DNA from: Antedon mediterranea | Taxonomy: Eukaryota > Animalia > Echinodermata | Length of the DNA: 64,000 nt | Reading direction: 5' to 3' | Assembly (NCBI RefSeq): GCF_964355755.1 | Contig: NC_092676.1 | Coordinates: 3,511,888-3,575,887 of the forward strand | Part shown: piece by piece, positions 1-63,353 of the stretch | Position numbering within the stretch: the first letter of the stretch is position 1 | How the letters are laid out: every line of letters starts with the position of its first letter | Notes under the pieces: generated by a model | The model's input: the letters and a program-made list of their open reading frames with translations, nothing else | What the model was told of the DNA's origin: nothing | Database searches by the model: none | Position numbers and translations under genes: made by a program

Positions 1-1
1 G

Positions 2-892
2 AAACATGACAAAAAGACAAAACCTGAAAATGTACCATTGAAAGAACCAATGCATGGCAACACTGATCAAGAAATTATTATTAAAACGCGCGTAGATGGC
101 CCTCTGCGCGAAACGTTGGTGACCGATGTGGCTATATATGATGAACCTACAATGTCAGACACACATGGAAACTGGGAGATTGTTTACGAAGACCCTGACG
201 TACCACCACACGACCAATTAACAGAAAAAGATAAGTATGATTATGTTGCATCAGAAGAAATGACAGTTGAAAGAGAGAGCAAAACCGAGTATGACTATGC
301 GGCAACAACAGACACCCACAGTGCCGAGAAGACAACTGAACGACACAACTATGATTATGTGGTATCAGCAGACATCCACAGAACAGAAAATGAATATGAC
401 GATGTAACATCAGCAGACGATCAAAACGATGAAACAGACAGGGAAAATGAGTATGATTATGTGGAAACACCAGGCATAGGCTCCACAGAAAAAGAAGGCT
501 TTGCAGAATACATTGAACTTGTTGATGACAACGCCGATGTCGAATGTCATCAGAGGAAGCCACTAACAACTAATATGCCTGCTGCATCCAAGTACAATGA
601 TGTTTCAATGTCACAAACTTATATTTCCATAAATATTAGAGCAAATGATAATGAGGCTGAGTACGAAAATAGTAAAGTGCATCGTCCCAAAGGTGTCTCG
701 ACTTCTGATAACTTAAAGACCGAAAGTGTTAAATTATCACAGAGATCAAGAAGAGATGGAAAAACCATTTCAGATAATCGCGAAGATGACGTCACCAATG
801 TGCATGCGAGTAAATTTGAAGTACGTGATACAAACGACGTGTACGAAAATGCATCGGTACGCAGAAAAGCAGCGAAGTGTGCTAAGAAATAG
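2..892 (+). CDS. G1: cytoplasmic tail (class A) of an IgSF receptor, 5' part outside window
   Basis: Frame open from base 2 (KHDKKTKPENVPLKEPM...) to TAG; nearly identical to the C-terminal part of G4 (16195-17091); motifs YDEP, YEDP, YDYV x3, YDDV, YIEL, YENS, YENA. Confidence 0.85.
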   Translation, partial: KHDKKTKPENVPLKEPMHGNTDQEIIIKTRVDGPLRETLVTDVAIYDEPTMSDTHGNWEIVYEDPDVPPHDQLTEKDKYDYVASEEMTVERESKTEYDYAATTDTHSAEKTTERHNYDYVVSADIHRTENEYDDVTSADDQNDETDRENEYDYVETPGIGSTEKEGFAEYIELVDDNADVECHQRKPLTTNMPAASKYNDVSMSQTYISINIRANDNEAEYENSKVHRPKGVSTSDNLKTESVKLSQRSRRDGKTISDNREDDVTNVHASKFEVRDTNDVYENASVRRKAAKCAKK

Positions 893-2045
893 AAGAAGAA
901 AAACATAACCAACCGTACAGAATAGTAATACAAAAACAAACAATGAAAAGTCCACTAACGCATATTATCAAAGAGACTTGTTTATGAATGTTTAATCTAT
1001 TAAGGCTTTTATTATGTGAAATTGTTATCTGTTATTATTGTCCCCAACACGTACAGGGGTGTGACTTATTCTTTTACGTATTCTAAGACTAGTATGAGCC
1101 ATGATAGTTCCATGGTAAAAGAAATAGAAAAGTAGGCTAAATATTATAAGTTAATATCTTGAAATATTTAATTTTGTTTAAGGAAGTAAATAAAAAAATA
1201 TTATATTAGAAATAATCAACTCTGAGAGATGAACATTAACCAGAAAAGAGAGTTTTATATTAATGTCGTTTACTGTTTTTATATCTAATTGTCTATACAT
1301 TTTATACATTTTTACATTATATGCATATATTTTCTTTGTTATCCTTTTTAATGTAAAATTTTACGGTTTTGGCTATTTGTATAATTGATCGTATGTTTTT
1401 GGACAAATAAATGAATTAATATAATTATGCGATATGTGTAATGTTTCTTTAAGACGCATTTGTGAAAACTGTATTCAGAAAAAACATCAAATAAAATAAA
1501 AAAAGGCTGTTTATAAGTTTCTACGTTTTAATGATAAAGGGGTTAATTGGCCAACAAGAGGTGAACATTAGCTTGTTGACTCTATTTATGATCAAAGTAG
1601 AACATCATCAATCAACAAACTGAATCTATTAAACATCATTAACATGTTATTTTAGTTTAAAAAAAGTTCAACAATAAAAGAATATATATATACTAGTGAC
1701 ACGTGTTCTATAGAACACGAGCCCAGTCAGCCAATTTGTGTAAACAAAAAATAATATATAATATATTTAATAAAAAACATTAAATCTCTTGTTGTCATTG
1801 ATTGACCTCCCACCCAAATCGTTCCTGATGGGACAAGAACGTTTGCTCTTTACATACAAAATTTTATTTCACAGTTTCAGTCTTATAGGGGGCGGTATAC
1901 AATACTAGAAAAATGTTGAATGCTTCCTCATGATGAACTGTGTAGTGTAGTTGACAAAAGTACATTTTTCTACAATATATATTAATAAAATATTGCACGA
2001 GCATTATTTTATAACATTTGTATAAACATCAACCATCGAGAAATA

Positions 2046-2215
2046 TAAAACAGACAGCGGAAATACATATAACTGCGTGACGTCAGCAATGAAAACGATG
2101 ACCACTAAAACAGACAGTACAAATGAGTATGATTATGTTGAAACATAGGTGCAGCCACGGTGAAGAACGATTGTCACATGAGGAAGCCAGTAAAAACGGA
2201 AAGATAGGCGTACTG
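2046..2215 (+). pseudogene. Relic of a class A receptor tail
   Basis: ACAGACAGTACAAATGAGTATGATTATGTTGAAACA (TDSTNEYDYVET) and flanks match the family tail; no ORF context; second copy at about 18250-18420. Confidence 0.6.
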
Positions 2216-6208: not shown

Positions 6209-7972
6209 ATGTTTAAAATGTCTCATCTTCAACATTGTACATTGCTGTTTTTCAAGTGCTTGATTGTATTGTATAGTATATTTCACTGTTGTTGTGCACA
6301 ATCCTATACTTTTACAAAACAACCCAAATCTGTTCTTGTTGGACAAGGAAACACAGCATCGTTATCGTGTGAATGGACACCAGCATTGAATGAAAACCAT
6401 GTCGTTTTCTGGTCAGCATACCCTCATGTTGGTGGGTTGCAAGCAATCGATAGGTCAACTTAAAAGTACAATTTAACAACTATAGCAACATCTTCATATC
6501 TTTCCATTTTTAATGTTGGTTACAATGATGTAGGAAGATACAGGTGTGATATCTCGGAAGGTGCTGCTTCATTTAGTCTGTCTGAATTTGCTTCTGTGGT
6601 GATAGGAGAAATAGTGTGCGATCCAAAGAATAGCAATGGTGAGATTGGAACAACGATGACATGTTCCTATTTTACTTCTTATTATTCACGTGATATTGAT
6701 TTACTATGGTATAAAAACAGGAAACAAATTACATCAAAAGTACCACAAAACAATGCTATAAAATCAAGAGCTTTGACTGTTGAAGACGATAGAGATGTAT
6801 TTACTTGTAAAGCCACAATTAGATCTCAAAATCAAGTGATAGGAACTTGTGAAACTACTCCGCTAGTATTGACAATAGATGCAGAGATTGAACAATCACC
6901 GCCAGGTGCACTTCATGATGGAGATAGCTTTACCCTTACCAGCTTAGGGAAAGGTAATCCTGATTATTATGAATATGAATGGACGTGGAATGGCAAACCT
7001 GTAGGATCATCGCCAAATGGAAGTCGATTTGCAATAGATAATGTGCTAACTGTGAAGAGTGTATCAAGCAATGCCAACGGCAAAATAGTTACTTGTACTA
7101 TTAGTCGTAGTAGTCATAACAGTAGTTTAGCAACCTATACACTGAACATTATAGAGCAAATGACTACACGTTTGCAGTCGACATCTGGTACGCGTACGCG
7201 CAACTCAATTACACGTCAGCTATCAACCGACGTCCCTCATGACGAGTCCCCAACAGTAGTGACTACACGTTTACAGTCGACACCAGGTACACCAATTACA
7301 GTCAGACTATCAGAAACTAATATCCAGGGTATTGATTCTACAATAGTAATCATTTTCATCATTGGCGGAGTTGCGATAGTTCTTGTGAGTTTGATAACAG
7401 CATTTACAATTTACTTTTTAAAGAAAAGGCACAATAAACAGTACGACAAAGAAGAGACAAAACCCGAAAATGTACCATTGAAAGAACCAGTCTACGGTAA
7501 CACTGAACAAAACATTAACAGTTCTGAATTAGATAATGACCTGTGTGAAAATGTGGAAACAATGTACGCAGAACCTGACCTGTCAACAAATGGGTGCCAT
7601 ATTAAATATGACACGCCACAGAATGCAGTAAACATTGATAAAACTGATGATTCTTTAGGTAAGCCAATGAAACCTAATGAAATGAGTGATGCTAAGCCTA
7701 GAAAAAGGACAAGTGCCGAAAATACGGATATAATACAAGTAAGACCAACCGGACCAACCAAGTCCCACACTGTTAAAGAAAGTCTTGAAGATCTGTATTC
7801 TAGGCCCAACAAACCAACGACAAGAACGCCAGAAATTACGCACGAAGATCTTACTAAGAAAAACGTAGAAGGCTTAACGTACGCAGAAATAGAGTTTACA
7901 AGCGGTACGTTCCCAGCCCCTGAACCACAAGACTACGGGCTTGATTACGCAACTGTACATATTAAGAAGTAA
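6209..7972 (+). pseudogene. G2: 3-Ig receptor with tandem-ITIM (class B) tail, single nonsense codon
   Basis: ORFs 6200-6463 and 6596-7972 are in the same frame; TAA at 6461-6463 where paralog G5 has TTA; otherwise continuous signal peptide-Ig-Ig-Ig-stalk-TM-tail ending LTYAEI...LDYATV. Confidence 0.85.
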
Positions 7973-9099: not shown

Positions 9100-9256
9100 A
9101 GCTCTGTCTACACTATCAAACTAGTTTGACAAAAAAGGATGTGATGTACCAAAATATGGTGGTGATATTCCCAAATATGGTAGTGGTATATCATGTCCAT
9201 ATATGGGCCCTTCACATTTTTTTTGTCACATAACATTTGATATTGTAGAAAAACCT
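9100..9256. mobile_element. Tourist/Harbinger-like MITE (~155 bp)
   Basis: Terminus AGCTCTGTCTACACTATCAAAC with degenerate inverse end, flanked by TTA/TTA; paralogous copy at about 35686-35840. Confidence 0.65.
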
Positions 9257-11221: not shown

Positions 11222-13073
11222 ATGGCTCATTCTCAATATTGGACATTGCTGTTCTTAAAGTTTCTGATTATATTTCATATATCTCACTGTTGTCATACGC
11301 AGTACTACAATTTTACAGAACATCCACAATCGGTTCTCGTTGCAGACGGACAAACTACAACGCTATCGTGTGAATGGACACCAGCATTGAATAACAACCA
11401 TCTCGTAACATGGAAATACGATCGTGTTAATAGTCCTAAACGAATTGAAATTTCAGATACAAAATACGCATTAATGAACGAAGCAACATCTTCAAGTCTT
11501 TCCATTTCTAATGTTGGCTCTGGTGACGTAGGCAACTACATTTGTGAGATCTTCGAATGTGATTCATACAACAGTGTCTCATCTTCTACATTTGCTTCTC
11601 TAGTATTAGGAGAATTGATATGTTTTCCGGAGAATGTTGTTGATATAGGAACAACGCTGATATGCTCCTTCACCTCTTCTGATAATTCATATATTATTAA
11701 TTTACTATGGTATAACAACGGAAAACAAATAACTTCGGGACAACAACAAAACAATGATTTAGAATCAACGGCTCTGACTGCCGAAGACGAAGGAGGTGTA
11801 TTTACTTGTAAAGCCACCATCGGATTTCAAAGTCAAGCGACAGGAACTTGTGAAACTACTCCACTAGTATTTCCAATAGATGCAGAGATTTAACAATCAC
11901 CACCAGGTCCACTTCAGGTTGGTGATAGATTTAATCTTACCTGCGTAGGGAAAGGTAATCCTGAAAATTATAATTACGAATGGACGTGGAATAACAACCC
12001 AGTAGAATCTATGACAGATAGTCGATTTGCAATTGGCAATATGGTTATTGTGAATACTGTATCAGGCAGTGACAATGGCAAAATGGTTTCTTGTACTATT
12101 AGTAGTAGTGGTTACAGAAGTATAGCGAGCTATACAATAAACATTTTGGATCAGACATCGAGTACAACTACAAGTATGTCGACACCAGATAGGCCTACAC
12201 GTACGCAAAAACCAATTACGGCGGTCAGACTCACAATACCTGATGACCCGGATGACATTTCAACAACAGTAATGACTACACGTTTAAAGTCGACACTAGA
12301 TACACGTACGCAAAAACCAATTACGGTCAGACTCACAACACATAATGTTCCGGATGACATTTCAACAACAGCAATGACTACACCAGATACACGTTTGCAA
12401 AAAACAATTACACATCAACTCACAACACATAAAGTCTCGGAAGACGTTTCCGCAACAGTAGACCTAATGAATACACGTTTAAACACAACACCTGTTACTG
12501 TAACGCGTTCTATTACAGAAATCCTAACGGTTGTAATTATCGTAGTTGCAATTTTACTCGTCGTTTCTTTGATAATAATAATAAGCCTATGTGTTTATTT
12601 GCAAAAAAAGAAAAAAGAAAAACACAACTCCTTCAAATCGACTGTCAAATAATCTTGAGCACGTTTACTATTACATTACGTCGTCTAGCGCACACGTGAC
12701 CTCGACAGCCAGTAACACTAAGTATGATTATGTCATACACCCATTCACACGCAATACTGAAGAATCCACTCCTGAGTACCTTGAATTGGACGATGGTTTC
12801 CAAGATATGGCGCACCAAAACCAGAAAGTAATACAGCCGCTGATTACGATGATGTTGCATCGCAACAAACAGATACTAAAAACCAAGAGTACAAATTCGA
12901 AAATGGTATGCTGCGTGTTAAAGGTATCAGAGAGACATAAAAAAATAAGGTACGCAACTATCAATTTTTTACGCATGTAATGGAACTACGATGACGTCAC
13001 ATTGGTGCGTACACGGCGTTGTTTGCTGATGAACGAGTCAATCGTGTACGAAAATTGTCTGATTTATATCTAA
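11222..13073 (+). pseudogene. G3: 3-Ig receptor, class C tail, disrupted
   Basis: Close paralog of intact G9; TAA at 11891-11893 (GAA in G9), +1 A in run 12603-12609, 2-bp insertion at about 12806 and further tail lesions; reconstructed end VYENCLIYI*. Confidence 0.85.
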
Positions 13074-15075: not shown

Positions 15076-17091
15076 ATGGCTCATCATCAATATTGTACAT
15101 TGCTGTTGTACAAGTACCTGATTATATTGTATAGTGTATTTCACTGCTGTTGTGCACAATCTTATACTTTTACAAAACATCCACAACCGGTTCTCGTTGC
15201 TGAAGGACAAACAGCAACGATAGCGTGTGAATGGACACCTGAATTGAATGAAAACCATGATATTTCATGGAGATACCATCCTGTTCTTAGAAGGGGTCAA
15301 TTAATTACAAAATCAACATCAAAATACACTTTCACAAAAGGTGCAACATTTTCAAGGCTTTCCATTTTAAATGTTGATTTTTATGATGTAGGAACATGCT
15401 TGTGTCGTATCTCCGAAGGTGATGGTGTATACAGTTCTTCTAAAACTACTGATGTAGCGCTAGGAGTATTAGCGTGTAGTCCAGAATATGATAATGGTGA
15501 AATAGGAACAAGGATAACATGTTCTTATACTTCATCTTATCTTCTATATTCTATTGATTTACTATGGTATAAAGACGGAAATGTAATTACTTCAGCAACA
15601 ACACAAAATAGTCTTTCAAAATCAAGGATTTTGACTGCTGAAGACTATGGAGCTGTGTTTACTTGTAAAGCTTTCATCTCAAATCATGTAATAGGAACTT
15701 GTGAAACTATTCCGCTAATATTGAACATAGATACAGAGATTGGACAATCACCACCAGGTCCACTTCAGGTTGGTGATAGCTTTAACCTTACCTGTTCAGG
15801 GAAAGGTAATCCTGATTATTATAAGTATGTATGGACGTGGAATGACAAACCTGTAGGATCGTCGACAGATAAAAATAGATATGCAATAGCTAGTGTGCTT
15901 ACTGCGAAGGATGTACGAAGTACCAGTGACAAAAAAGTTACTTGTACCATTAGTCGTGATGGTCGTAATAGCAGTACAGCGAGACATACAATAAATGTTA
16001 CAGAAAATACGCAAAGTACAACTGCATGTTCACGCACACCACACGGTAGGTCTACTGTTACAGACCCACTATCAGCAATCAATGTCACAGACAACGAGCC
16101 ACAAACATTGATTATTGTCATTGGCGTAGTTGCAAGAGTTATTGTGATTTTGATAACAGCAATTGTAATTTACATTTTACATAAAAGGCGTAAGAAACAT
16201 GACAAAAAGACAAAACCTGAAAATGTACCATTGAAAGAACCAATGCATGGCAACACTGATCAAGAAATTATTATTAAAACGCGCGTAGATGGCCCTCTGT
16301 GCGAAACGTTGGTGACCGATGGGGCTATATATGATGAACCTGCAATGTCAGACACACATGGAAACTGGGAGATTGTTTACGAAGACCCTGACGTACCGCC
16401 ACACGACCAATTAACAGAAAAAGATAAGTATGATTATGTTGCATCAGAAGAAATGACAGTTGAAAGAGAGAGCAAAAACGAGTATGACTATGCGGCAACA
16501 ACAGACACCCACAGTGCCGAGAAGGCAACTGAACGACACAACTATGATTATGTGGTATCAGCAGACATCCACAGAACAGAAAATGAATATGACGATGTAA
16601 CATCAGCAGACGATCAAAACGATGAAACAGACAGTGAAAATGAGTATGATTATGTGGAAACATCAGGCATAGGCTCCGCAGAAAAAGAAGGCTCTGCAGA
16701 ATACATTGAACTTGTTGATGACAACGCCGATGTCGAATGTCATCAGAGGAAGCCACTAACAACTAATATGCCTGCTGCATCCAAGTACAATGATGTTTCA
16801 ATGTCACAAACTTATATTTCCATAAATACTAGAACCAATGATAAAGAAACTGAGTACGAAAACAGTAAATTACATTGTCCCAAAGGTATCTCGACTTCTG
16901 ATAACTTAAAGACCAAGTCCGAAAGTGTTAAATTATCACAGAGATCAAGAAGAGATGGAAAAACCATTTCAGATAATCGCGAAGATGACGTCACCAATGT
17001 GCATGCGAGTAAACTTGAAGTACGTGATACAAACGAGGTATACGAAAATGCATCGGTACGCAGAAAAGCAGCGAAGTGTGCTAAGAAATAG
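15076..17091 (+). CDS. G4: intact single-exon IgSF receptor, 671 aa, class A tail
   Basis: Leader ending HCCCA|QSY; Ig motifs C-x-W...LSILNV..DVG..C, TCSY..LLWYK..FTC, LTCSG..WTWN..VTC; hydrophobic TM followed by HKRRKK; acidic Tyr-rich tail. Confidence 0.92.
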   Translation: MAHHQYCTLLLYKYLIILYSVFHCCCAQSYTFTKHPQPVLVAEGQTATIACEWTPELNENHDISWRYHPVLRRGQLITKSTSKYTFTKGATFSRLSILNVDFYDVGTCLCRISEGDGVYSSSKTTDVALGVLACSPEYDNGEIGTRITCSYTSSYLLYSIDLLWYKDGNVITSATTQNSLSKSRILTAEDYGAVFTCKAFISNHVIGTCETIPLILNIDTEIGQSPPGPLQVGDSFNLTCSGKGNPDYYKYVWTWNDKPVGSSTDKNRYAIASVLTAKDVRSTSDKKVTCTISRDGRNSSTARHTINVTENTQSTTACSRTPHGRSTVTDPLSAINVTDNEPQTLIIVIGVVARVIVILITAIVIYILHKRRKKHDKKTKPENVPLKEPMHGNTDQEIIIKTRVDGPLCETLVTDGAIYDEPAMSDTHGNWEIVYEDPDVPPHDQLTEKDKYDYVASEEMTVERESKNEYDYAATTDTHSAEKATERHNYDYVVSADIHRTENEYDDVTSADDQNDETDSENEYDYVETSGIGSAEKEGSAEYIELVDDNADVECHQRKPLTTNMPAASKYNDVSMSQTYISINTRTNDKETEYENSKLHCPKGISTSDNLKTKSESVKLSQRSRRDGKTISDNREDDVTNVHASKLEVRDTNEVYENASVRRKAAKCAKK

Positions 17092-19883: not shown

Positions 19884-22100
19884 ATGTTTAAAATGTCTCA
19901 TCTTCAACATTGTACATTGCTGTTTTTCAAGTGCTTGATTGTATTGTATAGTATATTTCACTGTTGTTGTGCACAATCCTATACTTTTACAAAACAACCA
20001 AAATCTGTTCTTGTTGGACAAGGAAACACAGCATCGTTATCGTGTAAATGGACACCAGCATTGAATGAAAACCATGTCGTTTTCTGGTCAGCATACCCTC
20101 ATGTTGGTGGGTCACCAGCAATCGCAATCGATAGTTCAACTTTAAAGTACAATTTAACAACTATAGCAAAATCTTCATATCTTTCCATTTTTAATGTTGG
20201 TTACAACGATGTAGGAAGATACAGGTGTGATATCTCGGAAGGTGGTGGTTTATTCAGTCTTTCTGAACGTGCTTCTGTAGTGTTAGGAGAAATAGTGTGC
20301 AATCCAAAGAATGACAATGGTGAGATTGGAACAACGATGACATGTTCCTATTTCACTTCTTATTATTCACATGATATTGATTTACTATGGTATGAAAACA
20401 GGAAACATATTACATCAAGAGTACAACAAAATTATGTTATAAAATCAAGAGTTTTGACTGTCCAAGACGATGGAGCTGTATTTACTTGTAAAGCCACCAC
20501 TGGAATCCAAAATCAAGTGATAGGAACTTGTGAAATTACGCCGCTTGTATTGACTATAGATACAGAGATTGTACAATCACCGCCAGGTACACTTCAGGTT
20601 GGTGATAGCTTTACCCTTACCTGCTCAGGGAAAGGTAATACCGATTATTATGAATATGAATGGATGTGGAATGGCAACCCTGTAGGATCGTCACCAAATG
20701 GAAGGCAATTTGCAATAGATAATGTGCTTATTGTGAAGAGTGTATCAAGCAGAGACAATGACAAAATAGTCACTTGTACTATTAGTCGTGATGGTCGTAA
20801 CAGTAGTATAGCAACCTATACAGTGAACGTTATAGAACAAATGACTACACGTTTGCTATCGACATCTGGTACGCGTACGCGAAACTCAATTACGCGTCAA
20901 CTATCAACTGACGTCCCTGATGATGAGTCCTCAACAGTAATGACTACACATTTACAGTCGACACTAGGTATACATACACACAAGTCAATTACATACATAC
21001 TATCAGAAACTAATATCCAGGATAATGATTCTACAATAATATTCATTGTCATCATTGGCGTAGTTGCGATATCTCTTGTGATTTTGATAACAGCAATTGT
21101 AAATTACATTTTACATAAAAGGCGCAAGAAACAGGATGAGAACAAAACAAAAGCTGAAAGTGTAACATTGAAAGAACCAATGTATGGCAACACTGATCAA
21201 GATATTATTAAAACGCGCGTAAATGGCCGTCTGCGCGAAACGTTGATAACAGATTTTGCTGTATATGAAGAACCTGCAATGTCAGACACACATGGAAACT
21301 TGGATATTGTTTACGAAGATCCTGACGTGCCTCCATACGACCAATTAACAGAAAAAGATAAGTATGATTATGTTGCATCAGAAGAAATAACAGTTGAAAG
21401 AGAAAGCAAAAACGAGTATGACTATGCGGCAATAACAGACACCCACAGTGCCGAGATGATAGATAATTCAGAAATAAAAAATAACTATGATTATGTGGTA
21501 TCGGCAGACATCCACAGCACAGAAAATGAATATGAAGGTGTAAAATCAGCAGACGATCAAAGTGATGAAACAGACAGTGAAAATGAATATGTGGAAACAT
21601 CAGGAATAGGCGTTACAGAAAAAGAAGGCTCTGCAGAATACATTGAGGTTGTCAATTACAGCGCTGATGACGATCCCAGTAAAGATTCACTGAAAACAGA
21701 AAATACTAGGCCTACAGCTAGCGAGTACAATGATGCTTCAATGTCACACACTTATATTTCCATCAATGATAATAATGATAATGATAATGAAGCTGAGTAC
21801 GAAAACAGTAAATTACATCGTCTTAAAGGTATCTCGACTACTGACAACACAAAGACCAAATCCGAAAGTGTTAAATTATTACAGAGATCAAGAAGAGGTG
21901 GAATAACCATTTTAGATAACCGCGAGGATGACTTCAGTAAGGTGAATGCGAGTACAGTTGAAGTAAACGACGTGTACGAAAATGCACCAATACGAACAAA
22001 AGCAGTGAAGTGTGCTAAGAAAAAAAAGAAGCAAAACAGAACCAAACGTAGGCCTACAGACAAAACTATTAAAACTGCATCAATACATTCTACATCATAA
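19884..22100 (+). CDS. G5: intact single-exon IgSF receptor, ~738 aa, class A tail
   Basis: Uninterrupted ORF with full architecture; start at ATG 19884 or 19893; two stalk repeats. Confidence 0.92.
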   Translation: MFKMSHLQHCTLLFFKCLIVLYSIFHCCCAQSYTFTKQPKSVLVGQGNTASLSCKWTPALNENHVVFWSAYPHVGGSPAIAIDSSTLKYNLTTIAKSSYLSIFNVGYNDVGRYRCDISEGGGLFSLSERASVVLGEIVCNPKNDNGEIGTTMTCSYFTSYYSHDIDLLWYENRKHITSRVQQNYVIKSRVLTVQDDGAVFTCKATTGIQNQVIGTCEITPLVLTIDTEIVQSPPGTLQVGDSFTLTCSGKGNTDYYEYEWMWNGNPVGSSPNGRQFAIDNVLIVKSVSSRDNDKIVTCTISRDGRNSSIATYTVNVIEQMTTRLLSTSGTRTRNSITRQLSTDVPDDESSTVMTTHLQSTLGIHTHKSITYILSETNIQDNDSTIIFIVIIGVVAISLVILITAIVNYILHKRRKKQDENKTKAESVTLKEPMYGNTDQDIIKTRVNGRLRETLITDFAVYEEPAMSDTHGNLDIVYEDPDVPPYDQLTEKDKYDYVASEEITVERESKNEYDYAAITDTHSAEMIDNSEIKNNYDYVVSADIHSTENEYEGVKSADDQSDETDSENEYVETSGIGVTEKEGSAEYIEVVNYSADDDPSKDSLKTENTRPTASEYNDASMSHTYISINDNNDNDNEAEYENSKLHRLKGISTTDNTKTKSESVKLLQRSRRGGITILDNREDDFSKVNASTVEVNDVYENAPIRTKAVKCAKKKKKQNRTKRRPTDKTIKTASIHSTS

Positions 22101-22374: not shown

Positions 22375-23297
22375 ATGGCTCATCATCAACATTGTACATT
22401 GCTGTTGTACAAGTGCTTGATTATATTCTATAGTATATCTTATTGTTGTTCTGCACAATCCTATACTTTTACAGAACATCCACAATCGGTTCTTGTTGCT
22501 GAAGGACAGGCAGCAACGTTGTCGTGTGAATGGACACCAGCACTGGATGACACTTTTGGTCCTGGTCAGCATTTTATGGAAGAGTGTCAAAAAGAATTGA
22601 TAGTTCCACTTTGAACTACAATGTAACAACTAAAGCAAAATCATATCTTTCAATTTTCAATGTTGATTCTGATGATTTAGGAAGATACATGTGTGATATA
22701 TCGGAAGGTGGTGATTCAAAAAGTCTTTCTTGCGTATTTGAAATTTTGCTCCTCGTTTCTGTAATAACAATAATAAGCCTATGTGTGTATTTGCAAAAAA
22801 AAAAGAAAAAAAAGAAGAAAAACACAATTCCTTCAGATCGACTCTCGAATAATCGACAGTCAAATAATGTTGGACATTTTTACGATTATATTACATCATC
22901 TGGCATACACGTGACCACGACAGCCAGTGACAAAGTTCAGTATGATTATGCTATTTTCCCAAGCACATAAATCACCGAGAAAAAGGGGGTGAATAGCACG
23001 GAAAACGAATACGAGGTTGGTGTATTATCTTCACGCACTGATGGTTTCCTAAAAGTCTGCACAAGTGATAAAGAGGTTGAGTACGAGCACGATGAAACAA
23101 TAGGCCTAGGCCTACATCTCAAAGATATGACAGACACTAACACTTTTGAAAATACATTAGATATTAGGAACAAAAGAATTAAACTATGAACGCGCCTGAA
23201 TGCAGCTGGTGGCACTGATGTAAACCTGTACGAAAATAAATCTGTATGTACAAAAGCATTGACGTCAGCTACGACATCTTTTATACAAAAGAGATAA
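22375..23297 (+). pseudogene. G6: internally deleted receptor (leader + Ig1 joined directly to TM), class D tail
   Basis: Frameshift at about 22550; Ig1 joined at about 22730 to CVFEILLLVSV (TM of G7); stops at 22968 and 23187 where G7 has CAA and TGT. Confidence 0.85.
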
Positions 23298-43018: not shown

Positions 43019-44142
43019 AAGAAGAATAACAGAAACAAACGTACAGAATATTCATACAAAAACCAACAATGAAAACTGCACTAACGCATATTATCACAAA
43101 GACTTGTTTATGAATGTTTAATCTATTAAGGCTTTTATTATGTGAAATTGTTATCTGTTATTATTGTCCCCAACACGTACAGGGGTGTGACTTATTCTTT
43201 TACGTATTCTAAGACTAGTATGGGCCATGATAGTTCCATGGTAAGAGAAATAGAAAAGTAGGCTAAATATATAAGTCAATATCTTGAAATATTTAATTTT
43301 GTTTAAGGAAGTAAATAAAAAAATATTATATTAGAAATAATCAACTCTGAAATGAACATTAACCAGAAAAGAGAATGGTAGGAAGTATTAACAGATGGAT
43401 AGCAAGAATTCAAATCGTACAGAAAACAGGAAAGAAAAACAGAATAAAGTTCATCGACAACTTATCCTTATTTGGCATGAAATAAACAACAATAAAAGAT
43501 CAATATATGCCAGTACACGTGATCGTCCAAAATGGTTTTTCCATGATGTTTCTATATAAAACTACGATTGTATACGTCATTAGATTTCTATATACATGTA
43601 ATTTAAATATTAAACTTTAAGGAACAACTATTGATCGATATTTACAGAAATTAATAATTTTGTGAATATGTATTTAATATATTTCGTATCATTTTTATAA
43701 ATATTTCTATTTATATTTTTGCTTTAAGGCTATAATTGTTTTACTACTGTAATAATTTTAGACTAGTTCAGACTTATGTTTTTCTTAAAAGAATAAATAA
43801 AAAGTTTCAGATATCACAAATGTGTGAAGGAATACGTTTAAAATGGTAACGTACCGTAATGTAAATGTATATTATCTTATTTCATAAAGGATAAAAAAAA
43901 TATATTTCATTGAATATGTAATTAATTGTTGCTGTAATTGCTTATTATTATAAGAAAGCTATCAAATTAAACTTAATTTATTTCAAATGCTATTGTACTA
44001 TTGTTTGTTGATTAAGCAACAAATGATTGGAAAGAGCAGCAGTTGATATCAACGTTAACGATAATGAGAAAGTTGTAACAGAATAGTGACTAGGAAGACT
44101 TTATGAAAAGCAAGAGATATAAATTTCATACAGTATTTCTAA

Positions 44143-45680
44143 CGCGGCTTCTGTACTGCTAGGAGAATTAACATGCAATCCAGAATATGATAATGGTGAA
44201 ATAGGAACAATGGTGACATGTTCTTATCCTTCTTCTTATACTGCAAATGATATTGATTTACTATGGTATAAGAACGGAAGGCCATTTAATTAAAAAACAC
44301 AGCAGAATAATGTTTTAGAATCAAGGGCTTTGACTGCCGAAGACGATGGAGCTGTATTTTTATTTGTAAAGCCACCACCGGATCAAACAATCAATTGATA
44401 GGACCTTGTAACTACTCCGCTAGTATTGACTATAGATGGAGAGATTGAACAATCACCGCCAGGTCCACTTCAGGTTGGCGATAGCTTTAATCTTACCTGC
44501 TCAGAGAAAGGTAATCCTGATTATTATAATTATGAATGAACGTGGAATGGATACCCTGTAGGATCGTCCACAATGAAAGGCGATTTGCAATAGTTAATGT
44601 ACTTACTGTGAAGATTGACAATGACAATACAAAAGAAGTTACTTGTACCATTAGTCGTAGCGATCGCAAAAGCAGTACAACGAGCTATACAATAAACGTT
44701 TTGGATAACACTGTACGTTGTACACAACATCATGTCACAGATAAGCCACAAATATTGATTATTATCATTGGCGTAGTGGCAATAGTTATCGTGATTTTAA
44801 TAACTACAATTGTAATTTACTTTTTACATAAAAGGCGCAAGAAACAGGATGGCAAAAAGACAAAACCTGAAAGTGTAACATTGAAAGATCCATGGCAACA
44901 CTGATCAAGAAATTATTATTAAAACGCGCGTAGATGGCCCTCTGCGCGAAACGTTGATAACAGATTTGGCTGCAATGTCAGACACATATGGAAACTTGGA
45001 GATTGTTTACGAAGACCCTGACGTGCCGCCACACAACCAATTAACAGAAAAAGTTAAGTATGATTATGTTGCATCAGAGGAAATGACAGTTGAAAGAGAA
45101 AGCAAAAACGAGTACGACTAAGCGGCAACAACAGACACCCACAGTGCCGAGATGACAACTGAACGACACAACTATGATTATGTGGTATCAGCAGAAATCC
45201 ACAGCACAGAAAATGAATATGACGATGTAACATCAGCAGACGATCAAAATGATGAAACAGAAAATGAGTATGATTATGTGGAAACATCAGGCATAGGCGC
45301 CACAGAAAAAAAAGGCTCTGCAGAATACATTGAACTTGTTGATGACAGCGCTGATGACGATCCCAGTAAAGATTCACTAAAAACAGATAATAATACTAGG
45401 CCTACAGCTGGTGAGTACAATGATGCTTTAATGTCACAAACTTCATTTTCCATAAATACTAGAACCAAAGAGGCTGAGTACGAAAACAGTCTCAAAGATA
45501 TCACGGCGACTTCTGACAACACAAAGTACGAAAATGTTAAATTATCAATGAGATTAAGAAGAGATGGAATAACCATTTCAGATAACCGCGAAGATGACGT
45601 CTCTCTGGTGTATGCGAGTACAAGATACAAACGTAAATGCATCGGTACGCACAAAAGCAGTGAAGTCTGCTAAGAAATAG
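44143..45680 (+). pseudogene. G11: 5'-truncated, multiply disrupted receptor, class A tail
   Basis: Starts at ASVLLGELTCNPEYDNGEIG (end of Ig1); several frameshifts and stops (e.g. about 44536, 45055, 45119); fragments in ORFs 44536-44904 and 45152-45673. Confidence 0.85.
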
Positions 45681-46187
45681 AAGAAGTAAAACAGAACCAA
45701 ACGCAAGATCAAAAACAACAATGAAAACTGCACCAAACAATACATTACATTAAACACTAAACACTACAAAATTAAAGTGAAGTGAAATCTTTATCTATAT
45801 ATTTCCAAAAATACTGTTTCTATCACGTAGATGAGACTTATTTTCAGATACAAACACAAGCAATCATTACTAAATTATATTTTGAAATGTACAGTAATTA
45901 ATTGTTGGTTGTTTAAGAAAGTAAATTGAAATAAATTAGAAAGATGAATATTAACCAGAAAATGGAAGGGTAGGAAGTATTAGAAGAAAATAATTAGCAA
46001 GAATTGAAATCGTTCAGAAACGAGGGAAGAAATCAGAAAAGGCCATCAGCCAACATAAGTATCCTAATTTGGCATATTTTATGAAAGTACGTCAAAAGGT
46101 TGTATGATGGTTCTCTAAAACCTCGACTATACGTCATTAGATTTGTATGGTATAATATAGATATTCAACAATAAGCAAAAAATTAAT

Positions 46188-50362: not shown

Positions 50363-52318
50363 ATGGCTCCTCATCATTGCTTGTTGTTCCTGATTATATT
50401 GTGTAGTATATTTTACGAATGTTTTGCACAAGTATATGTCTTCACAGAAGACCCGAAACCGGTTCTTGTTGCTGAAGGAAACACAGCAATTCTATCGTGC
50501 GCATGGAGGCCAGAATTGGATGAACGGCATACCTTTCAATGGGCATTTATCCATCAGGATGGTGGTAAGTCTCAATCAATTAGAATGTCAAATTAAAAAT
50601 ACAATCTAACAATCGACGCAACATCTTCTAATATTTTCATTTCCAATGTTGATTCTAATTACGCGGGAGACTACAGGTGTGATATCAGACACGGCGATAG
50701 AGACATTCTTTCTAAACAGGCTATTGTAGTGCTAGGAGAAATAACGTGCCATCCAGAATATGATAATGGTGAGATAGGAACAACGATGACATGTTCTTAT
50801 AATTCTTCTTATCCTTTTTTTATTTATGTACGATGGTATAAATCAGACAAACTAGTACTATCATACACACACGACAAACACGTTATAGAATCAATAGTTT
50901 TGACTGCTGAAGACGATGGAGCTGTGTTTACTTGTAAAGCTATCATCTCAAGTCAAGTATTAGGAACTTGTGAGACTACTCCGCTAGTATTGACTGTAGA
51001 TGCAGAGATTGAACAATCACCGCCAGGTACACTTCAGGTTGGTGATAGCTTTAATCTTACCTGTTCGGGGAAAGGTAATCCTGATTATTATAATTTTGCA
51101 TGGATGTGGAATGACAAACCTGTAGGATCGTCGCCACTACAAAATAAATTTGTAAAAGATAATGTGCTTACTGTGGCGAGTGTATCAAGCAGTGCCAATG
51201 GCAAAATAGTTACTTGTACCATTAGTCGTGATGGTCGTAACAGCAGTACAGCGAGATATACAATACACGTCTTAGAGAATACGCCTACTGTTACAAAGCC
51301 ACTATCAGCAAACAATGTCACAGATGAGCACCAAACATTGATTATTGTCATTGGCGTAGTTGCAACAGTTATTGTGATTTTGGTAACAGCAATTGTAATT
51401 TACATTTTACATAAAAGGAGTAAGAAACAGGATGGCAAAAAGACAAAACATGAAAGTGTAACATTGAAAGAACAAATGCATGGTAACACTGATCAAGACA
51501 TTATCAGTTCTGAACAATTTCGCGTAGAAAATAGACTTAGGCACGAAAAGATGATAACAAATTTGGCTGTATATGATGAGCCTGCAATGTCAGAAACTCA
51601 TGGAAACTTGGAGATTGTTTACGAAGATCCCGACGTGCCACCACATGAAAAATTAACAGAAAAATATAAATTCGATCATTTGGCATCAGAAGATACTCAC
51701 ATCACTAAAATGACAACTGAACCAGACAGCAAAAACGAGTATGACTATGCGGCAATAACAGACACCCACAGTGCCGAGATGACAGATGAAACAGACATTA
51801 AAAATAACTATGATTATGTGGTATCAGTAGACATCCACAGCACAGAAAATGAATATGACGATGTAACATCAGCAGACGATCAAAACGATGAAACAGAAAA
51901 TGAGTATGATTATGTGGAAACATCAGGCATAGGCGCCACAGAAAAAGAAGGCTCTGCAGAATACATTGAACTTGTTGATGACAACTTCAATGTCGACTGT
52001 CACCAGAGGAAGCCACTAACTAATATGCCTGCTGCATCTAAGTACAATGTTGCTTCAATGTCACAAACTTATAGAGCAAATGATAATGAGGCTGAGTACG
52101 AAAACAGTAAATTACATCGTTCCAAAGGTATCTCGACTTCTGACAACTCAAAGACCAAGTTATCACAGAGATCAACAAGAGATGGAATAACCATTTCATA
52201 TAATCGCGAAGATGACGTCACCAAGGTGCATACGAGTACAGTTGAAGTACCTGATACAAACGACGTGTACGAAAATGCATCGGTACGCACAAAAGCAGCG
52301 AAGGGTTCTAAGAAATAG
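50363..52318 (+). pseudogene. G12: 3-Ig receptor, class A tail, single nonsense codon
   Basis: ORFs 50363-50596 and 50729-52318 in frame; TAA at 50594-50596 where G13/G15 have TCA. Confidence 0.85.
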
Positions 52319-57240: not shown

Positions 57241-59120
57241 ATGGCTCATCATCATTGTTTGCTGTGCCTGATTATATTGTATAGTATATTTTACAACTGT
57301 TTTGCACAAACATATCGATTCACAAAACATCCACAACGGGTTCTTGTTGCTGAAGGAAACACAGCAAGGCTATCATGTGTATGGAGACCAGAATTGTATG
57401 AACTGGATAACTTTGGATGGTCATTATTCCCTCAGGTTGGTGGTGAGTATCAACCAATTAGAATGTCAAATTCAAAATACAATCTAACAAACGACGCAAC
57501 GTCTTCACATCTTTCCATTTCTAATTTTGCTTCTAGTGACATAGGAAAATACAGGTGTGATATCAGACACGACAGAGACACTGTTTCTAAAGAGGCTGTT
57601 GTAGTGCTAGGAGAAATAACGTGCAATCCAGAATATGATAATGGTGAAATAGGAAGAACGATGACATGTTCTTATACTTCTTCTTATCCTTCAAATTTTA
57701 TTTATTTACAATGGTATAAATCAGACGAACAAGTACAATCAGACACCCAAGACAAACACGTTATAGAATCAATAGTTTTGACTGCTGAAGACGATGGAGC
57801 TATGTTTACTTGTAAAGCTTTCATCGGTTATCAAGTGATAGGAACTTGTGAAACTACTCCGCTAATACTGACTATAGATGCGGAGATTGATCAATCACCG
57901 CCAGGTACACTTCAGGTTGGTGATAGCTTTAATCTTACCTGCTCAGGGAAATGTAATCCTGATTATTATAATTTTGCATGGACGTGGAATGGCAAACCTG
58001 TAGGATCGTCGACATGTCAAAATATATTTGGAATAGGCCATGTGCTTACTGTTTTGGGTGCAACAAACAATGTGAATGGCATAAACGCTACTTGCACTAT
58101 TAGTCGTGATGGTCGCAACAGCAGTACAACGACCTATACAATAAATACAGTTTTCGTAAATGTGACCTCTACAACGACACATTCACACACGACACCAGGT
58201 ATACATACACAAAATGCAAGTATATATAAACTATCAGAAACTACTAGACTAAAGATTGTCATTGGAGCCGTTTCAGTAGTGTTTGTGATTTCGACGACAG
58301 GAAATATAATTTCTTTTTAAGGAAAAGGCGCCAAAAAACTAAACGAATAAGCCTACAATTAAAGTCAATGAATGACATTGAACAAAAGACTGCAGATTCT
58401 GACGTTCATGAAAACATGGTGACAGTTTTGACTGTTGATAAGTTTGGGATTTCAAAAGAGTCAAACGCAGAAGACAATTTAACCACTATGTCATGTGATA
58501 AACGTACACTGGCAGCACGTGACCAATTACAAGACAACGTTGATTATGATTGTGTGGCATCAGACGACAATCGAAGTACTGACATTACAGTAAACAGCAA
58601 CAATGAATGCCATGATTCGGCATTAGTAGACATTCACAACGATGAAATGACATCTGAAACAGGCAGTGAATATGAGTATGATTATGTGGAGACATCAGGC
58701 ATAGGGGCCACAGAGAATAACGGCACTGCAGAATACCTTGAGGTTGTCGATGACAACGCTGATGACGATCCCAGAAGAAATGCACTAAAAACAGAAAATA
58801 CTAGGCCTACAGCTGGTGAGTACAATGATGCTTCAATGTCACAAACTTATATTTCCATAAATACTAGAACCAATGATAAAGAAACTGAGTACGAAAACAG
58901 TAAATTACATTGTCCCAAAGATGTCCCGACTTCTGACAACTCAAAGACCGAAAGTGTTAAATTATCACAGAGATCAAGAAGATATGGAATAACCATTTCA
59001 GATAATCGCGAAGATGACGTCACCAAGGTGCATGCGAGTAAAGTTGAAGTACCTGATACAAACGACGTATACGAAAATGCATCGGTACGCACAAAAGCAG
59101 TGAAGTGTGATAAGAGATAA
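57241..59120 (+). pseudogene. G13: chimeric receptor with 1-bp deletion at end of TM
   Basis: ATAATTTCTTTTTAAGG versus ATAATTTTCTTTTTAAGG in G10 gives TAA at 58318-58320; tail continues in ORF 58368-59120. Confidence 0.85.
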
Positions 59121-62100
59121 AAGAAGAAAAACAGAACCAAACGTACAGAATATTCATGCAAAAGCAAACAATCAAAACTACACTGACGCATATTATCATA
59201 TAGTCTTTTTTATGAATGTTTAATCTATTAAGGCTTTTATTATGTGAAATTGTTATATGTTACTACTGTCCCCAACACGTACATGGGTGTGACTTATTCT
59301 TAAAAGTATTGTAAGACTAGTATGGGCCATGATACTTTCATGGTAAGAGAAATAGAAAAGTAGGCTAAATATATACGTTGATATCTTGAATAATTATAGC
59401 GCAATCTAAATACTGTAATTTTTAAGGAAGAAAATAACAAAATATTATATTAGAAATAATCAACTGTGAGATGAAAATTAACCAGAAAAGGGAAGGGTAG
59501 GAAGTATTAACAGGTGATTAGCAAGAATTCAAATAGTACAGAAACTAGTAAAGAAAAACAGAATAAAGTTCATCGATAATATCCTTATTTGGCAGTCTTC
59601 TCTAGCATCCACATATATGCTGGGTCCGACTGTTGAAGGGTTCCTTGACTGGGTTAGCTTCTTAGCTTGAACTAGGATCGCACTGAAGGAGATTGCTTAA
59701 TTTAATCCAGGGGTCACGATAGTATGGTAATTTTGTGAATATGTATTTAATATATTTCGTATCATAAATATAAATATTTCTATTTTATAGTTTGGCTTTA
59801 ATGCTATAATTTGTTACTGTATATTTATAACTGCAAAGTTAACGGACAAAAACCTCGCATAAATCACTTGAATTGAGAGGTATAGAGAAATTGAACAGTA
59901 CATTGTTAATTTTCTTTAAATAGTTAATAGACTTTTATTTCGCATCTTTCTTTCTTTGTTTAAATGAAATCTGTTTTGACATTTTTGTATATTAATAGGC
60001 ATGTGTTTTGTAACTTTTAACGGTTACTTTATTATTACTTGTATTAATTTTTAATGTAACCGAGTAAATTATGTAATTTATTGTTTTATGACATACGATA
60101 CAGGAAATAAATAAAATTTGCTCCAATAATTTTAGACTAGTTCAGACTTATGTGTTTTTTATACAGAGAATAAATAAATAGTATCAGATATCACAAATGT
60201 GTGAAGAAATACATTAAAAATATTATTTATTCTCTCAGCTTGAGTGTACTACTTACAGTACGCTCATGTAAATATATATTTAATTGAATATGTATAAGTA
60301 ATTGTTTCTGTAATTGATTATTATAAGAGAGCAGACAAATTAAAGTTAATTTAAAGTTAATTTTTTCCAAATGTTATTGTACTTGTTTGTTGATTAAGGA
60401 ACAAATGAATGGAAAGGGTACCAGTTGAGATCAACGTTAACGAGAATAAGAAAGAAAGTTGTAACAAAAAAATAATAATATGACTGTGTAAAATCAGCAA
60501 ACAATCAAAACGATGAAATGACCACTGAAACAGACATTGAAAATGAGGATGATTATGTGGAAACATCAGGCATAGGCGTCAATAAAGGCTCTGCAAAATA
60601 CATTGAGGTTGTTGATGACAACACTGATGCTGATTCCTTGATTGCCCTACTAAAAAAGAAACTAATAGGCCTACTGTGGCTGAGTACAATGATGCTTCGA
60701 TACCACAAAACTATATTTCAATAAATACTAGAGAAACTGATAAAGAGGCTGAGTACGAAAACAGTACATCGTCTTAAAGGTATCTGGACTTCGACGTATA
60801 CGAAAACGCATCTGTACGCACAAAACCACTGAAGTCTGCAAGGAAATGGAAGAAGCAAAACAGAACCAAACGTAAGATCAAAAACAACAATTAAAACGGC
60901 ACCAAACAATACATTACATTAAATACCTCTTTAAAAAAATAAATATCTGCCATTTCAGTTTTCCAGGTATGATTTATTAAGGCTTTTGTTAAATGAAATC
61001 TTTATCTTTCACTATTTCCAAAATACGCAATAATGACTAAATTACACGTTGAAATGTACAGTAATTAATTGGTTTGTGTTTAAGAAAGTAAATTGAAATA
61101 AATTACAGAGATGAATATTAACCAGAACATGAAAGAGTAGGAAGTATTAGAAAATAATTAGCAAGATTTAAAATCGTACAGGAAAACAAATCAGCAAACA
61201 TAAGCATTCTAACGTGATTGCCAAAATAGTCTATGATGGTTCTCTAAAACCTCGACTATACGTCATTAGATTTATATAAATATAATACAACTAATAGACT
61301 TTAAGCAAGAACTGAATTATTCAGTTATTTACACGTTACAAGTTTCTAATTTTGTGAATATACATTTAATAAAATAATTGTACCAGGTATTACACACGTT
61401 GGAAAGAAAGCTATCTTACACTTTGGTAATTTTTATTAAAAGACAGACAACTTTAACTTAATAAAGTTAAGGAAGGAAAAACATTAAAAGTGAAACCATT
61501 AATTTCTTTATTATTGCTTTAACTCTAGATTTGACTTGCATTTCGGTTCAATGTACAATTTACATTCGCACGGAGACGGCGCCGTTCAATTCTTTATAGA
61601 ATGTATATTTAACAAAACGGCGCCTTCAACTCCGTGAAACAGAATAAGTTAGGCGTACATTTTATTTTACGGTAATGTAATAGAAAAATAGATTTCATTA
61701 AATATATAATTATTTTTTTAGATTATGTAATCGATTGTCATCGTAAAAGAGCAAACAAATTTAACTTTTAATAAAAGTATGTATTATTTAAAAAACTGAG
61801 ATCAACGGTAACGACAATAAGAAAGAAAGTTGTAAATACAGATAATTATGATTTTGCGAACGAATTTATAAATGTGAAAGGCTATTAGTGAAGCTGATGA
61901 AACTCAATATGGAAACAATTAAGAAAATGCCAAGTTATTGATACTTTCTACATTTAGAAAATTGCTCAAAATAACTTTCCCCTAATGGACCTTGTTTAAA
62001 AGGTATCTAGAGTAGAGGAACAAATAATACATTAATTCGTTTTCTTAATTATTGATCAATAACTCACTAATATGTAAAATATATATAAGAACTCGTGGAC

Positions 62101-63348
62101 AGCATTAACTAAATGAAAAAAGACTAAAAATTTAAAAAAACACGAATTTATAAAACATAAATTATAACCTAATGAACAGAAGAAAAAAAAACAAATACAG
62201 GACTAACTAAACATAGCTTATGGACGAAAAATAAATGAAAAGACATCGTTAATAATTGAAATTAAAAAAACCGAAATATTTCTAAAGAGAAAAATCATGA
62301 TATATGTAAGAAAGTTAGAATTGCTTTTTCAAATAATTTAGTTATAGTGTGCTAAGTGAAGACCAATTAATTTCAATTCAATTAGTGGTTATTATTATAT
62401 TTAATATAACTACGACCGCCAGAGAAAGCAAAGAAGGGTTGGGAGCCCTCTATTTCAATTTTACAAAGCTTATTTAAAACTTTCCTAAATAAAATAATAG
62501 GCTTCTCCTTATCTATTCATATAGAACCAGAAATACAAATGTGAAATCGTATAAACGAAGATGCGACAATAACAAAAATCGTTTTCAACATTATATACAT
62601 TACAACACAGGGATACTTCAGTTTTAGTCAAAATCGTCACTCTAATAAGATATGTTTAGTGTGGATGCGCAGTTATTTTTGTATATATCATGACTGTGAC
62701 CAGGTTTGATGTATGAATACAGTGACTAGATACAGTATAGGAATCAGATCGACTGAGTGCTTAAACTGAGTACGATTTCATAACGCGAATATCGACTAAC
62801 AATAAGGTTTACATTATAAACACTATTGTTTAATCATCAGAATTTACCTACGTTTATTTGTGTACGTTTTTGTTTCATCATAAATCTCTATTTTGGAAAT
62901 TGATTTAAACTGAACTAAAGTAATATTGGAAGATGAACTAGAAACTACCAAGTCGCAGTGTTTATAATGGCTCATCATCATTGCTTGTTGTGCCTGATTG
63001 TATTGTATAGTATATTCTACGACTGTTTTGCACAAATATATCGATTCACAAAACATCCAAAACCGGTTCTTGTTGCTGAAGGAAACACAGCAAGGTTATC
63101 ATGTGCATGGATACCAGAATTGGATGAACGGCATAACTTTCGATGGGTATTCTTCCCTCAGGATGGTGGTCAGTTTCAAGTACTTGAGAGATCAAATTCA
63201 AAATACAATTTAACAAATAACGCAACTTCTTCACATCTTTCCATTTCTAATTTTGCTTCTAGTGACATAGGAAAATACAGGTGTGATATCAGACAAGACA
63301 GAGACACTGTTTCTAAAGACACTGTTTCTAAAGAGACTGTTGTAGTGC
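57870..63348 (+). repeat. Older/looser segmental duplicate of about 41760-50730
   Basis: G13 3' half = G10 3' half, G14 relic corresponds to G11, G15 promoter and Ig1 correspond to G12. Confidence 0.75.
60478..60850 (+). pseudogene. G14: tail-only relic at the position equivalent to G11
   Basis: TTETDIENEDDYVETSGIG..GSAKYIEVVDD; 3' flank matches that of G11 (45680-45750). Confidence 0.75.
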
Positions 63349-63353
63349 TGTGA
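62967..63353 (+). pseudogene. G15: leader + Ig1 only, interrupted by unrelated sequence
   Basis: G12/G13-type Ig1 with 15-bp duplication (GACACTGTTTCTAAA x2); family homology stops at GTAGTGCT, followed by TGA. Confidence 0.75.

Follow-up and report, generated by a model that had tools for sequence, protein, structure and literature searches.

The window analysed here is a stretch of 64,000 nucleotides (64 kb) from the echinoderm Antedon mediterranea (contig NC_092676.1, positions 3,511,888 to 3,575,887 of the forward strand). It contains a tandem array of 15 related loci, all on the + strand, for receptors with three immunoglobulin (Ig) domains. Five of these loci are open, eight are disrupted, one is a relic and one is cut by the window edge. 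The loci were detected by tblastn of five long open reading frames (ORFs) against the window, combined with three-frame reading, and were numbered G0 to G14 in order; the window sequence is free of N and has a GC content of 28–39%. An ATG is present in 12 copies, the further loci being G10, which lacks its 5′ part, the tail relic G13 and the edge-cut tail G0. Each open gene runs as one ORF from its ATG to its stop, without introns in the coding region; they encode 671 (G3), 735 (G4), 663 (G7), 506 (G8) and 637 (G9) amino acids.

Pfam found Ig domains in all nine array proteins scanned. An AlphaFold2 model based on 11 window sequences (mean pLDDT 77) begins with a leader helix followed by three beta-sandwich domains, Ig1, Ig2 and Ig3; C-terminal to Ig3 there is a Thr-rich stalk, a single transmembrane (TM) segment and a Tyr-rich tail. 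Ig1 matches the I-set at least as well as the V-set, and Ig2 carries four aligned cysteines. An earlier, sequence-only reading of this DNA had described about 15 single-ORF loci on the + strand, five intact and eight disrupted, together with relics, and had given them the same architecture, including the four-Cys Ig2. The count is borne out by tblastn and three-frame reading, and the architecture by Pfam, AlphaFold2 and alignment. Cys147 of G7, the B-strand Cys of Ig2, lies two residues earlier in the alignment than in the Kirrel2L-type relatives described below, and the disulfide pairing of Ig2 may differ from theirs.

Comparison of the tails at the DNA level revealed four classes: A (G1, G7), B (G0, G3, G4, G10, G11, G13) with B′ (G9, G12), C (G2, G8) and D (G5, G6). 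The class A and B tails are alike only in their first ~100 bases. At the C terminus of class A there are two strict ITIMs (immunoreceptor tyrosine-based inhibitory motifs; shuffle p about 0.016), and the remaining classes are without the ITIM pair, in agreement with the earlier division into ITIM and non-ITIM tails. Class B tails are acidic and carry two to four YDxV motifs, of which about 0.1 is expected by shuffling, plus YxN and YxxP. ITIMs dock SHP (PMC9546547), the YDxV motifs of nephrin recruit Nck (PMC11247170) and YxN docks Grb2 (PMC5112662). By analogy, the ITIM tails are likely inhibitory and the YDxV/YxN tails likely activating. Judged by its motifs, the putative inhibitory member is present as an intact gene, G7, and a broken one, G1. 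The accessible literature yielded no description of an ITIM-type receptor in echinoderms or hemichordates, and PMC13673367 holds no relevant passage on ITIMs or the immunoglobulin superfamily (IgSF). The array provides concrete candidates for ITIM signalling in these animals.

Table 1. Loci of the array, in window coordinates.
Locus	Position	Strand	Features
G0	2..892	+	copy cut by window start; open class B tail (YDxV/YxN), 97% identity with G3 tail
G1	6218..7972	+	G4-like head, G7-like stalk and class A ITIM tail; TAA stop 6461-6463 within Ig1
G2	11222..13060	+	class C tail; stop 11891-11893 (end of Ig2); frameshifts after TM and in tail
G3	15076..17091	+	intact, 671 aa; class B tail with 4 YDxV and 2 YxN; Arg codon within TM at 16135
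G4	19893..22100	+	intact, 735 aa; class B tail; head 87-99% DNA identity with G1
G5	22375..23330	+	class D tail; Ig1 frameshift; deletion of Ig2, Ig3 and stalk
G6	26331..28330	+	G1/G4-like head; ectodomain and TM fully open; class D tail
G6 lesions	~27540; ~27872-28186	+	A-run frameshift after TM (~27540); high-copy insertion in tail (~27872-28186)
G7	30556..32547	+	intact, 663 aa; sole intact ITIM copy; LTYAEI 32449-32466, LDYATV 32515-32532
G8	37787..39307	+	open, 506 aa; short class C tail
G9	41105..43018	+	intact, 637 aa; G3-like head; class B′ tail; Ig3 and tail 96-100% DNA identity with G12
G10	44120..45700 (about)	+	leader and most of Ig1 gone; several stops and frameshifts; class B tail
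G11	50363..52318	+	class B tail; single stop, TAA 50594-50596
G12	57241..59120	+	G11/G14-like head, G9-like Ig3 and tail; frameshift at end of TM (~58310)
G13	60479..60876	+	class B tail relic, decayed
G14	62967..63353	+	leader and Ig1 only; stop 63351-63353

The tail of G8 is shorter than that of G2 owing to a deletion, and G4 has lost the original stop and gained ~25 amino acids. In the alignment, the TAA stops of G1 and G11 fall on one and the same Ig1 codon, but the surrounding sequence differs, and they apparently arose independently. Four lesions sit at domain borders: the G2 stop follows Ig2, that of G14 follows Ig1, and G6 and G12 lose their tails after the TM. By their position these four could be soluble or tail-less decoys instead of dead genes.

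Relationship to the KirrelL group

A profile of the ectodomain matched 2297 proteins at E up to 0.001; the best 150 of these were considered, and most are long multi-Ig proteins. Among the 150, the seven with at most two matched stretches, which are whole 3-Ig units, all come from echinoderms or hemichordates: Anneissia (2), Acanthaster, Diadema, Saccoglossus (2) and Glandiceps. Members from Amphiura and Ptychodera were found too, and 7 of the 24 matches in a second-round search were urchin and starfish orthologues. One relative, P0139, equals Aplc_Kirrel2L by eye over 400 residues and has the same length of 582, and P0169 nearly matches Lv_Kirrel2L over the first 400 residues (PMC8903837, Figure 6 source data 3). 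KirrelL, Kirrel2L, Hypp1164 and IgTM are a set of 3-Ig proteins expressed in primary mesenchyme cells (Khor and Ettensohn, 2022; PMC8903837). Kirrel2L alone of this set was among the proteins compared, the others being known from the supplement of that paper. The array had at first been assigned to no named family; this no longer holds, since its nearest relatives are Kirrel2L and its kin in the described KirrelL group.

An Ig2 signature with four cysteines, D[ND]G..F.C..C..P followed by a hydrophobic residue, was composed after inspection of the alignment and matches 9 of 10 window ectodomains. It is found in 20 of 214 comparison proteins, 19 of which are Kirrel2L-like or otherwise ambulacrarian. 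In a tree of 22 rows (LG+G4), which included 5 of the 10 window ectodomains and nephrin-like, CD22-like and one unnamed outgroup rows, a branch supported at 96/94 separates the window and ambulacrarian units (17 rows) from the five outgroup rows. A larger tree, quick and unfinished, did not recover the window and ambulacrarian units as one group. The placement of the window family, which sits on a long stem branch, differs between the two trees, being sister to three hemichordate rows (86) in one and with the echinoderms (36/72) in the other, with an approximately unbiased (AU) test p of 0.435.

Over the whole ectodomain, the window proteins are 20–24% identical to Diadema P0148, which is of the Kirrel2L type; urchin Kirrel2L is 71–73% identical across genera. 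On architecture, signature and tree, the array proteins are best classed as members of the KirrelL group and not as Kirrel2L orthologues, because 15 loci, this low identity and the long stem branch stand against a conserved low-copy gene. One-to-one orthology to a conserved adhesion gene had been named beforehand as a result that would undo the idea of a new receptor family: the family is indeed the same, but a 15-copy offshoot on a long branch is not a one-to-one orthologue. Of the profile and fold searches proposed with it, the sequence profile led to the KirrelL-group relatives. Solved structures, searched by sequence and by fold, gave nothing beyond generic matches to Ig proteins (titin, DIP/Dpr, Necl-4, CD22, Kirrel2/Neph1). 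A word-index search with residues 30–330 of G7 found nothing among 1248 candidates, a 'longer' search gave three generic Ig proteins, and neither of two JGI metagenome scans turned up a related locus (none among 94 pattern matches in one and 107 in the other).

The whole set of KirrelL, Kirrel2L, Hypp1164 and IgTM was reportedly treated as an intronless family by Ettensohn and Dey in 2017. One urchin Kirrel2L lies on an ENA contig of 15,272 bases, which hints that its coding region is a single exon. The kirrelL gene is without introns in all echinoderms examined and is required for primary mesenchyme cells to fuse (PMC8903837). Since the nearest relatives of the array genes belong to the group whose namesake is intronless, their own intronless state is likely inherited, not new. 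Three database models, P0054 and P0134 from Anneissia and P0140 from Amphiura, each consist of two complete receptor units in tandem, and both Anneissia models are recorded with a longest contig of 1,865,526 bases; from these models, crinoids and brittle stars probably have tandem copies that were fused by annotation.

The relatives also bear on the history of the tails. Two strict ITIMs are present in seven of seven single-unit urchin, starfish and Saccoglossus P0096 tails, and the crinoid, Glandiceps, Ptychodera and second Saccoglossus tails have none or one. The motif VEGL.YA[ED][LI] is common to G7, P0096 and P0140. Because the class A, urchin and starfish Kirrel2L and Saccoglossus P0096 tails all end in two ITIMs, the pair is likely the ancestral tail state.

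Selection on Ig1 and turnover of the array

Mean amino-acid identity among the 10 ectodomains is 56% in Ig1, 60% in Ig2 and 67% in Ig3. Site models were fitted with our own codon code, using one tree per domain and naive empirical Bayes (NEB), not with PAML. The likelihood ratio test (LRT) of M2a vs. M1a gave 31.0 for Ig1, with 21% of sites at omega 3.3; the values for Ig2 (3.2) and Ig3 (1.4) were not significant. Without gap-adjacent columns the Ig1 value was 16.9, which none of 60 recombination-null simulations reached (mid-domain tree switch, 10 copies; maximum 9.9, with 7 of 60 at least 5.99). When placed on the structural model, the seven top Ig1 sites all map to the FG loop or to one of strands C, C′, F and G, and omega was 3.8 on the C/C′/F/G strands (15 codons) compared to 0.54 elsewhere in Ig1. 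The framework Cys and Trp residues are retained, and 30–66% of sites have omega of about 0.1–0.3. Positive selection is confined to Ig1, as the earlier notion of a variable distal domain had it, and is concentrated on the predicted C/C′/F/G binding face. The paired CEACAM receptors of Xenopus display the same CC′C″FG pattern, with gene conversion (PMC5112662). A two-copy fold prediction of Ig1–Ig2 scored 0.00, which speaks neither for nor against homophilic binding.

Heads and tails have been swapped between copies. G1 tracks G4 over its first 900 bases (87–99%) and G7 from 1050 onward (93–97%), and G12 tracks G11 through Ig2 and G9 from Ig3 onward (96–100%). The G1-type head also sits on a B tail in G4 and a D tail in G6, so that Ig1 domains of 89–94% DNA identity are joined to three tail classes; G1 and G6 are broken here. 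Indels kept the frame in 46 of 61 cases between coding copies (four gene pairs) compared to 19 of 75 in six non-coding block pairs, which argues that the array reflects neither chance nor decay alone. These observations support the birth-and-death evolution proposed in the sequence-only reading.

Blocks spanning several genes were also duplicated, for example 9064-12370 vs. 35658-38935 (94%) and 1-3606 vs. 16194-19803 (97.6%); the latter pair may have arisen by recent duplication, or else be a haplotype that was not collapsed. A non-coding relic at 55141-56035, which shares 73% identity with the 3′ flank of G9 (43121-44010), appears from this match to be the trace of another lost copy. A contig from X6, a run of a second organism (B), which crosses the G6 frameshift, has a net 13 letters more than the window and is without the 315-base insertion; X8, also of organism B, has seven more at G6, and X5 (organism A, other study) nine more, which is the window frame. 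The differences of 13 and 7 are both 1 modulo 3, the shift that would rejoin the G6 TM with its tail. This suggests that a G6-like gene is open in organism B, although the contigs do not show the places of the gaps and are possibly paralogous, and it is consistent with recent gene turnover.

With respect to other features of the window, a non-coding element of 1.17 kb at 35686-36853, with a second copy at about 9095-10250, carries terminal inverted repeats of 35 nt (94%) and has very high depth in all four runs. It is likely a miniature inverted-repeat transposable element (MITE) that was inserted prior to the G2/G8 block duplication. A decayed reverse-transcriptase-like fragment on the − strand at 47199-47678 (Pfam RVT_1, E 0.044, below cut-off) is probably a relic of a long interspersed nuclear element (LINE). 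Short high-copy repeats are present at about 27872-28186, inside the G6 tail, and at 25600-25700 and 39580-39790. Rfam gave no matches in the window. In the 1-kb regions upstream of 12 genes, the Alx palindrome occurs 0 times (2.2 expected), NF-kB 0 times (0.1) and ETS 26 times (11.3); these counts were rejected as evidence, the 12 regions being paralogous. None of the sequencing runs that contain the array is listed as RNA; run X5, labelled 'RNA?', was likewise rejected as evidence of expression, as it covers intergenic repeats and behaves like DNA.

Interpretation and alternatives

The comparisons above demonstrate the array and its link to the family, the division of its tails into four classes, its mosaic copies and the selection on Ig1. 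We give about even odds to the reading that joins them, a tandem, intron-free expansion of 3-Ig genes of the KirrelL family that now serve as arms-race recognition receptors with mixed ITIM and YDxV/YxN outputs. The ancestor would have been a Kirrel2L-like, single-exon adhesion receptor whose C-terminal ITIM pair would recruit SHP-type phosphatases. It would have been amplified head-to-tail, and unequal crossing-over in the conserved Ig3/stalk region would place a head on a new tail by a single crossover. Src/Nck and Grb2 would bind to the acidic YDxV/YxN tails and set off actin remodelling or uptake, and the copies with such tails would be decoys for a microbe or parasite exploiting the ITIM receptor. 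Selection on the Ig1 partner face used by IgSF receptors (PMC5112662) would drive the heads apart, and heads no longer of use would decay, leaving the eight broken copies. Pressure from an external ligand that keeps changing fits the pattern; in the simplest case this would be a microbe or parasite binding an inhibitory receptor and met by actin-recruiting decoys. The balance for and against this is, in our view, roughly level.

Several points weigh against this reading. [quoted passage not shown] YDxV is found also in nephrin, a non-immune adhesion protein, and the sole described function of the family is developmental, in the fusion of primary mesenchyme cells and with skeletogenic expression (PMC8903837). 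This haplotype lacks a matched pair with both members intact, since the copies with the head of G4, namely G1 and G6, are broken, and Ig1 of G7 is merely 67–76% identical in DNA to the other copies. The outgroup rows of the 22-row tree do not include CADM, nectin or Kirrel. As to selection, the codon models are our own NEB code instead of PAML, the face partition was set after the first sites had been seen, with S79, K82 and K94 (above 0.8) falling outside it, and the five intact genes alone give an Ig1 LRT of 7.0, inside the recombination-null range.

A developmental or reproductive role is the first alternative. The copies would then still be adhesion proteins, forming a code for cell fusion, tissue sorting or the meeting of sperm and egg, and would have diversified for the sake of partner specificity and not of defence. 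Gamete-recognition proteins are likewise under positive selection on their binding faces. KirrelL is required for the fusion of primary mesenchyme cells and is expressed in skeletogenic cells (PMC8903837), and nephrin uses YDxV-Nck-actin signalling (PMC11247170). However, the known members are conserved, as the 71–73% identity of urchin Kirrel2L across genera illustrates, and in the array 8 of 14 assessable loci are broken, tails are swapped and identity to Kirrel2L is 20–24%. Such turnover fits an essential developmental code poorly, and we regard this alternative as improbable, at perhaps one chance in five.

A similarly small share goes to the possibility that the array is part of a polymorphic self/non-self complex, paired-receptor-like and free of ITAMs, that was co-opted from KirrelL fusion receptors in an ambulacrarian lineage. 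If so, a single crossover between single-exon genes would shuffle a binding head onto another tail, either inhibitory or activating of the Nck/Grb2 type, and the array would be a candidate for the receptors behind echinoderm allorecognition, echoed by the tandem crinoid and brittle-star relatives. The narrower proposal of an allorecognition locus holds that Ig1 variants bind like-to-like, that the ITIM copy signals 'self' and that haplotype gene content sets compatibility. It draws on the known job of the KirrelL family in cell-cell fusion (PMC8903837), on allorecognition by echinoderm coelomocytes (PMC9763293) and on clustered Ig receptors with ITIM/ITAM tails in Hydractinia (Alr; PMC9546547) and Botryllus (FcoR; PMC12065747). 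The nearest folds belong to Ig proteins of adhesion, whether homophilic or heterophilic (Kirrel, CADM, DIP/Dpr). Against it, the animals concerned are mostly solitary, and diversity was measured among paralogues, not alleles. In the one gene compared, a small sample, long X5 pieces from another study of organism A over G8 differ at 3 of 261 and 7 of 503 letters, unlike the highly polymorphic Alr alleles. We consider this locus type less probable still.

It is also doubtful, and more so than the foregoing, that the array is simply what unequal crossing-over left behind in a repeat-rich region, with most copies redundant and drifting and relaxed constraint mistaken for selection. Mean pairwise dN/dS is 0.75–0.98 across all three domains, over half of the loci are broken and multi-gene block duplications exist. 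Drift would not yield omega above 1 restricted to one face of one domain, and the retained framework Cys and Trp, the 30–66% of sites at omega about 0.1–0.3 and the excess of frame-keeping indels in genes speak against it.

Assembly errors, in the form of uncollapsed haplotypes or homopolymer slips that inflate the array or its disruptions, are very improbable: one block pair is 97.6% identical and the G2, G6 and G12 frameshifts sit in A- or T-runs, but most copies are 10–35% apart, the G1, G2, G11 and G14 stops are outside homopolymers, X1 contigs (X1 may be the source sample) show 0–1 differences over 312–705 bases in four places, and runs of two further studies cover every bin examined. These 30 bins, which span 25600-45500 or 19.9 kb of the window, all have depth (four runs, three studies, two organisms).

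Should the expansion into recognition receptors be real, copy explosion, tail swapping and face selection would show how an adhesion receptor turns into one for recognition in the chordates' sister group, independently of the vertebrate CEACAM, Siglec and SIRP clusters. So far, KirrelL-group proteins have been known solely as conserved effectors of skeletogenic adhesion and fusion. The accessible literature, which does not cover subscription journals, gave no immune-type description of the family, and the word 'kirrel' is absent from PMC10396339. As single-exon genes, the copies are easily cloned candidates.

Comparison with known receptor systems

The vertebrate paired or decoy receptors, such as CEACAM1/CEACAM3 and the Xenopus Ceacams, are like the array in being clustered IgSF genes with ITIM vs. 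non-ITIM tails, with exchange of binding domains, a non-synonymous excess on the CC′FG face, YxN motifs and pseudogenes (PMC5112662). Siglec-5/14, Siglec-11/16 and CD300A/C are further pairs or decoys to which it can be likened. Copy exchange and selection on the CC′FG face, two marks of paired receptors, are both found here. In contrast, homology to the vertebrate receptors is limited to the Ig fold, and the array consists of single-exon genes on the same strand, with no ITAM, almost no charged TM residues and no intact matched pair. In its pattern it works like a paired or decoy receptor cluster, but given the ITAM and charged-TM results and the missing intact pair it is not filed as one here.

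Among invertebrates, Hydractinia Alr is likewise a cluster of 1–3-Ig receptor genes and pseudogenes with ITIMs in a few tails, but has one exon per domain, an Fn3-like spacer, many ITAMs and allorecognition shown for Alr1 and Alr2 (PMC9546547). Pfam found no Fn3 domain in the array proteins, which have the Thr-rich stalk in its place. Botryllus FcoR is also type I, with V+C2+C2 Ig domains, ITIM or other Tyr-motif tails and birth-and-death evolution; it differs in its sushi domain, pairing with fester genes, alternative splicing and hemITAMs (PMC12065747). Neither Pfam nor AlphaFold2 placed a sushi domain between the Ig domains of the array proteins. Since both Hydractinia and Botryllus are known to have clustered Ig receptors with ITIMs, systems of this kind have precedents.

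The closest likeness is to the KirrelL group itself, with which the array has in common the leader, three Ig domains, Thr-rich stalk, one TM and Tyr tail, the extra Ig2 Cys pair, the single-exon coding region (stated for kirrelL) and the ITIM pair of Kirrel2L. It is unlike that group in its 15 tandem copies, over half of them broken, its 20–24% identity to Kirrel2L on a long branch, its three new non-ITIM tail classes, its head/tail mosaics and the positive selection on Ig1. The family and its intronless namesake were already known; the array departs from them in the expansion, the tail swapping and the selection on Ig1.

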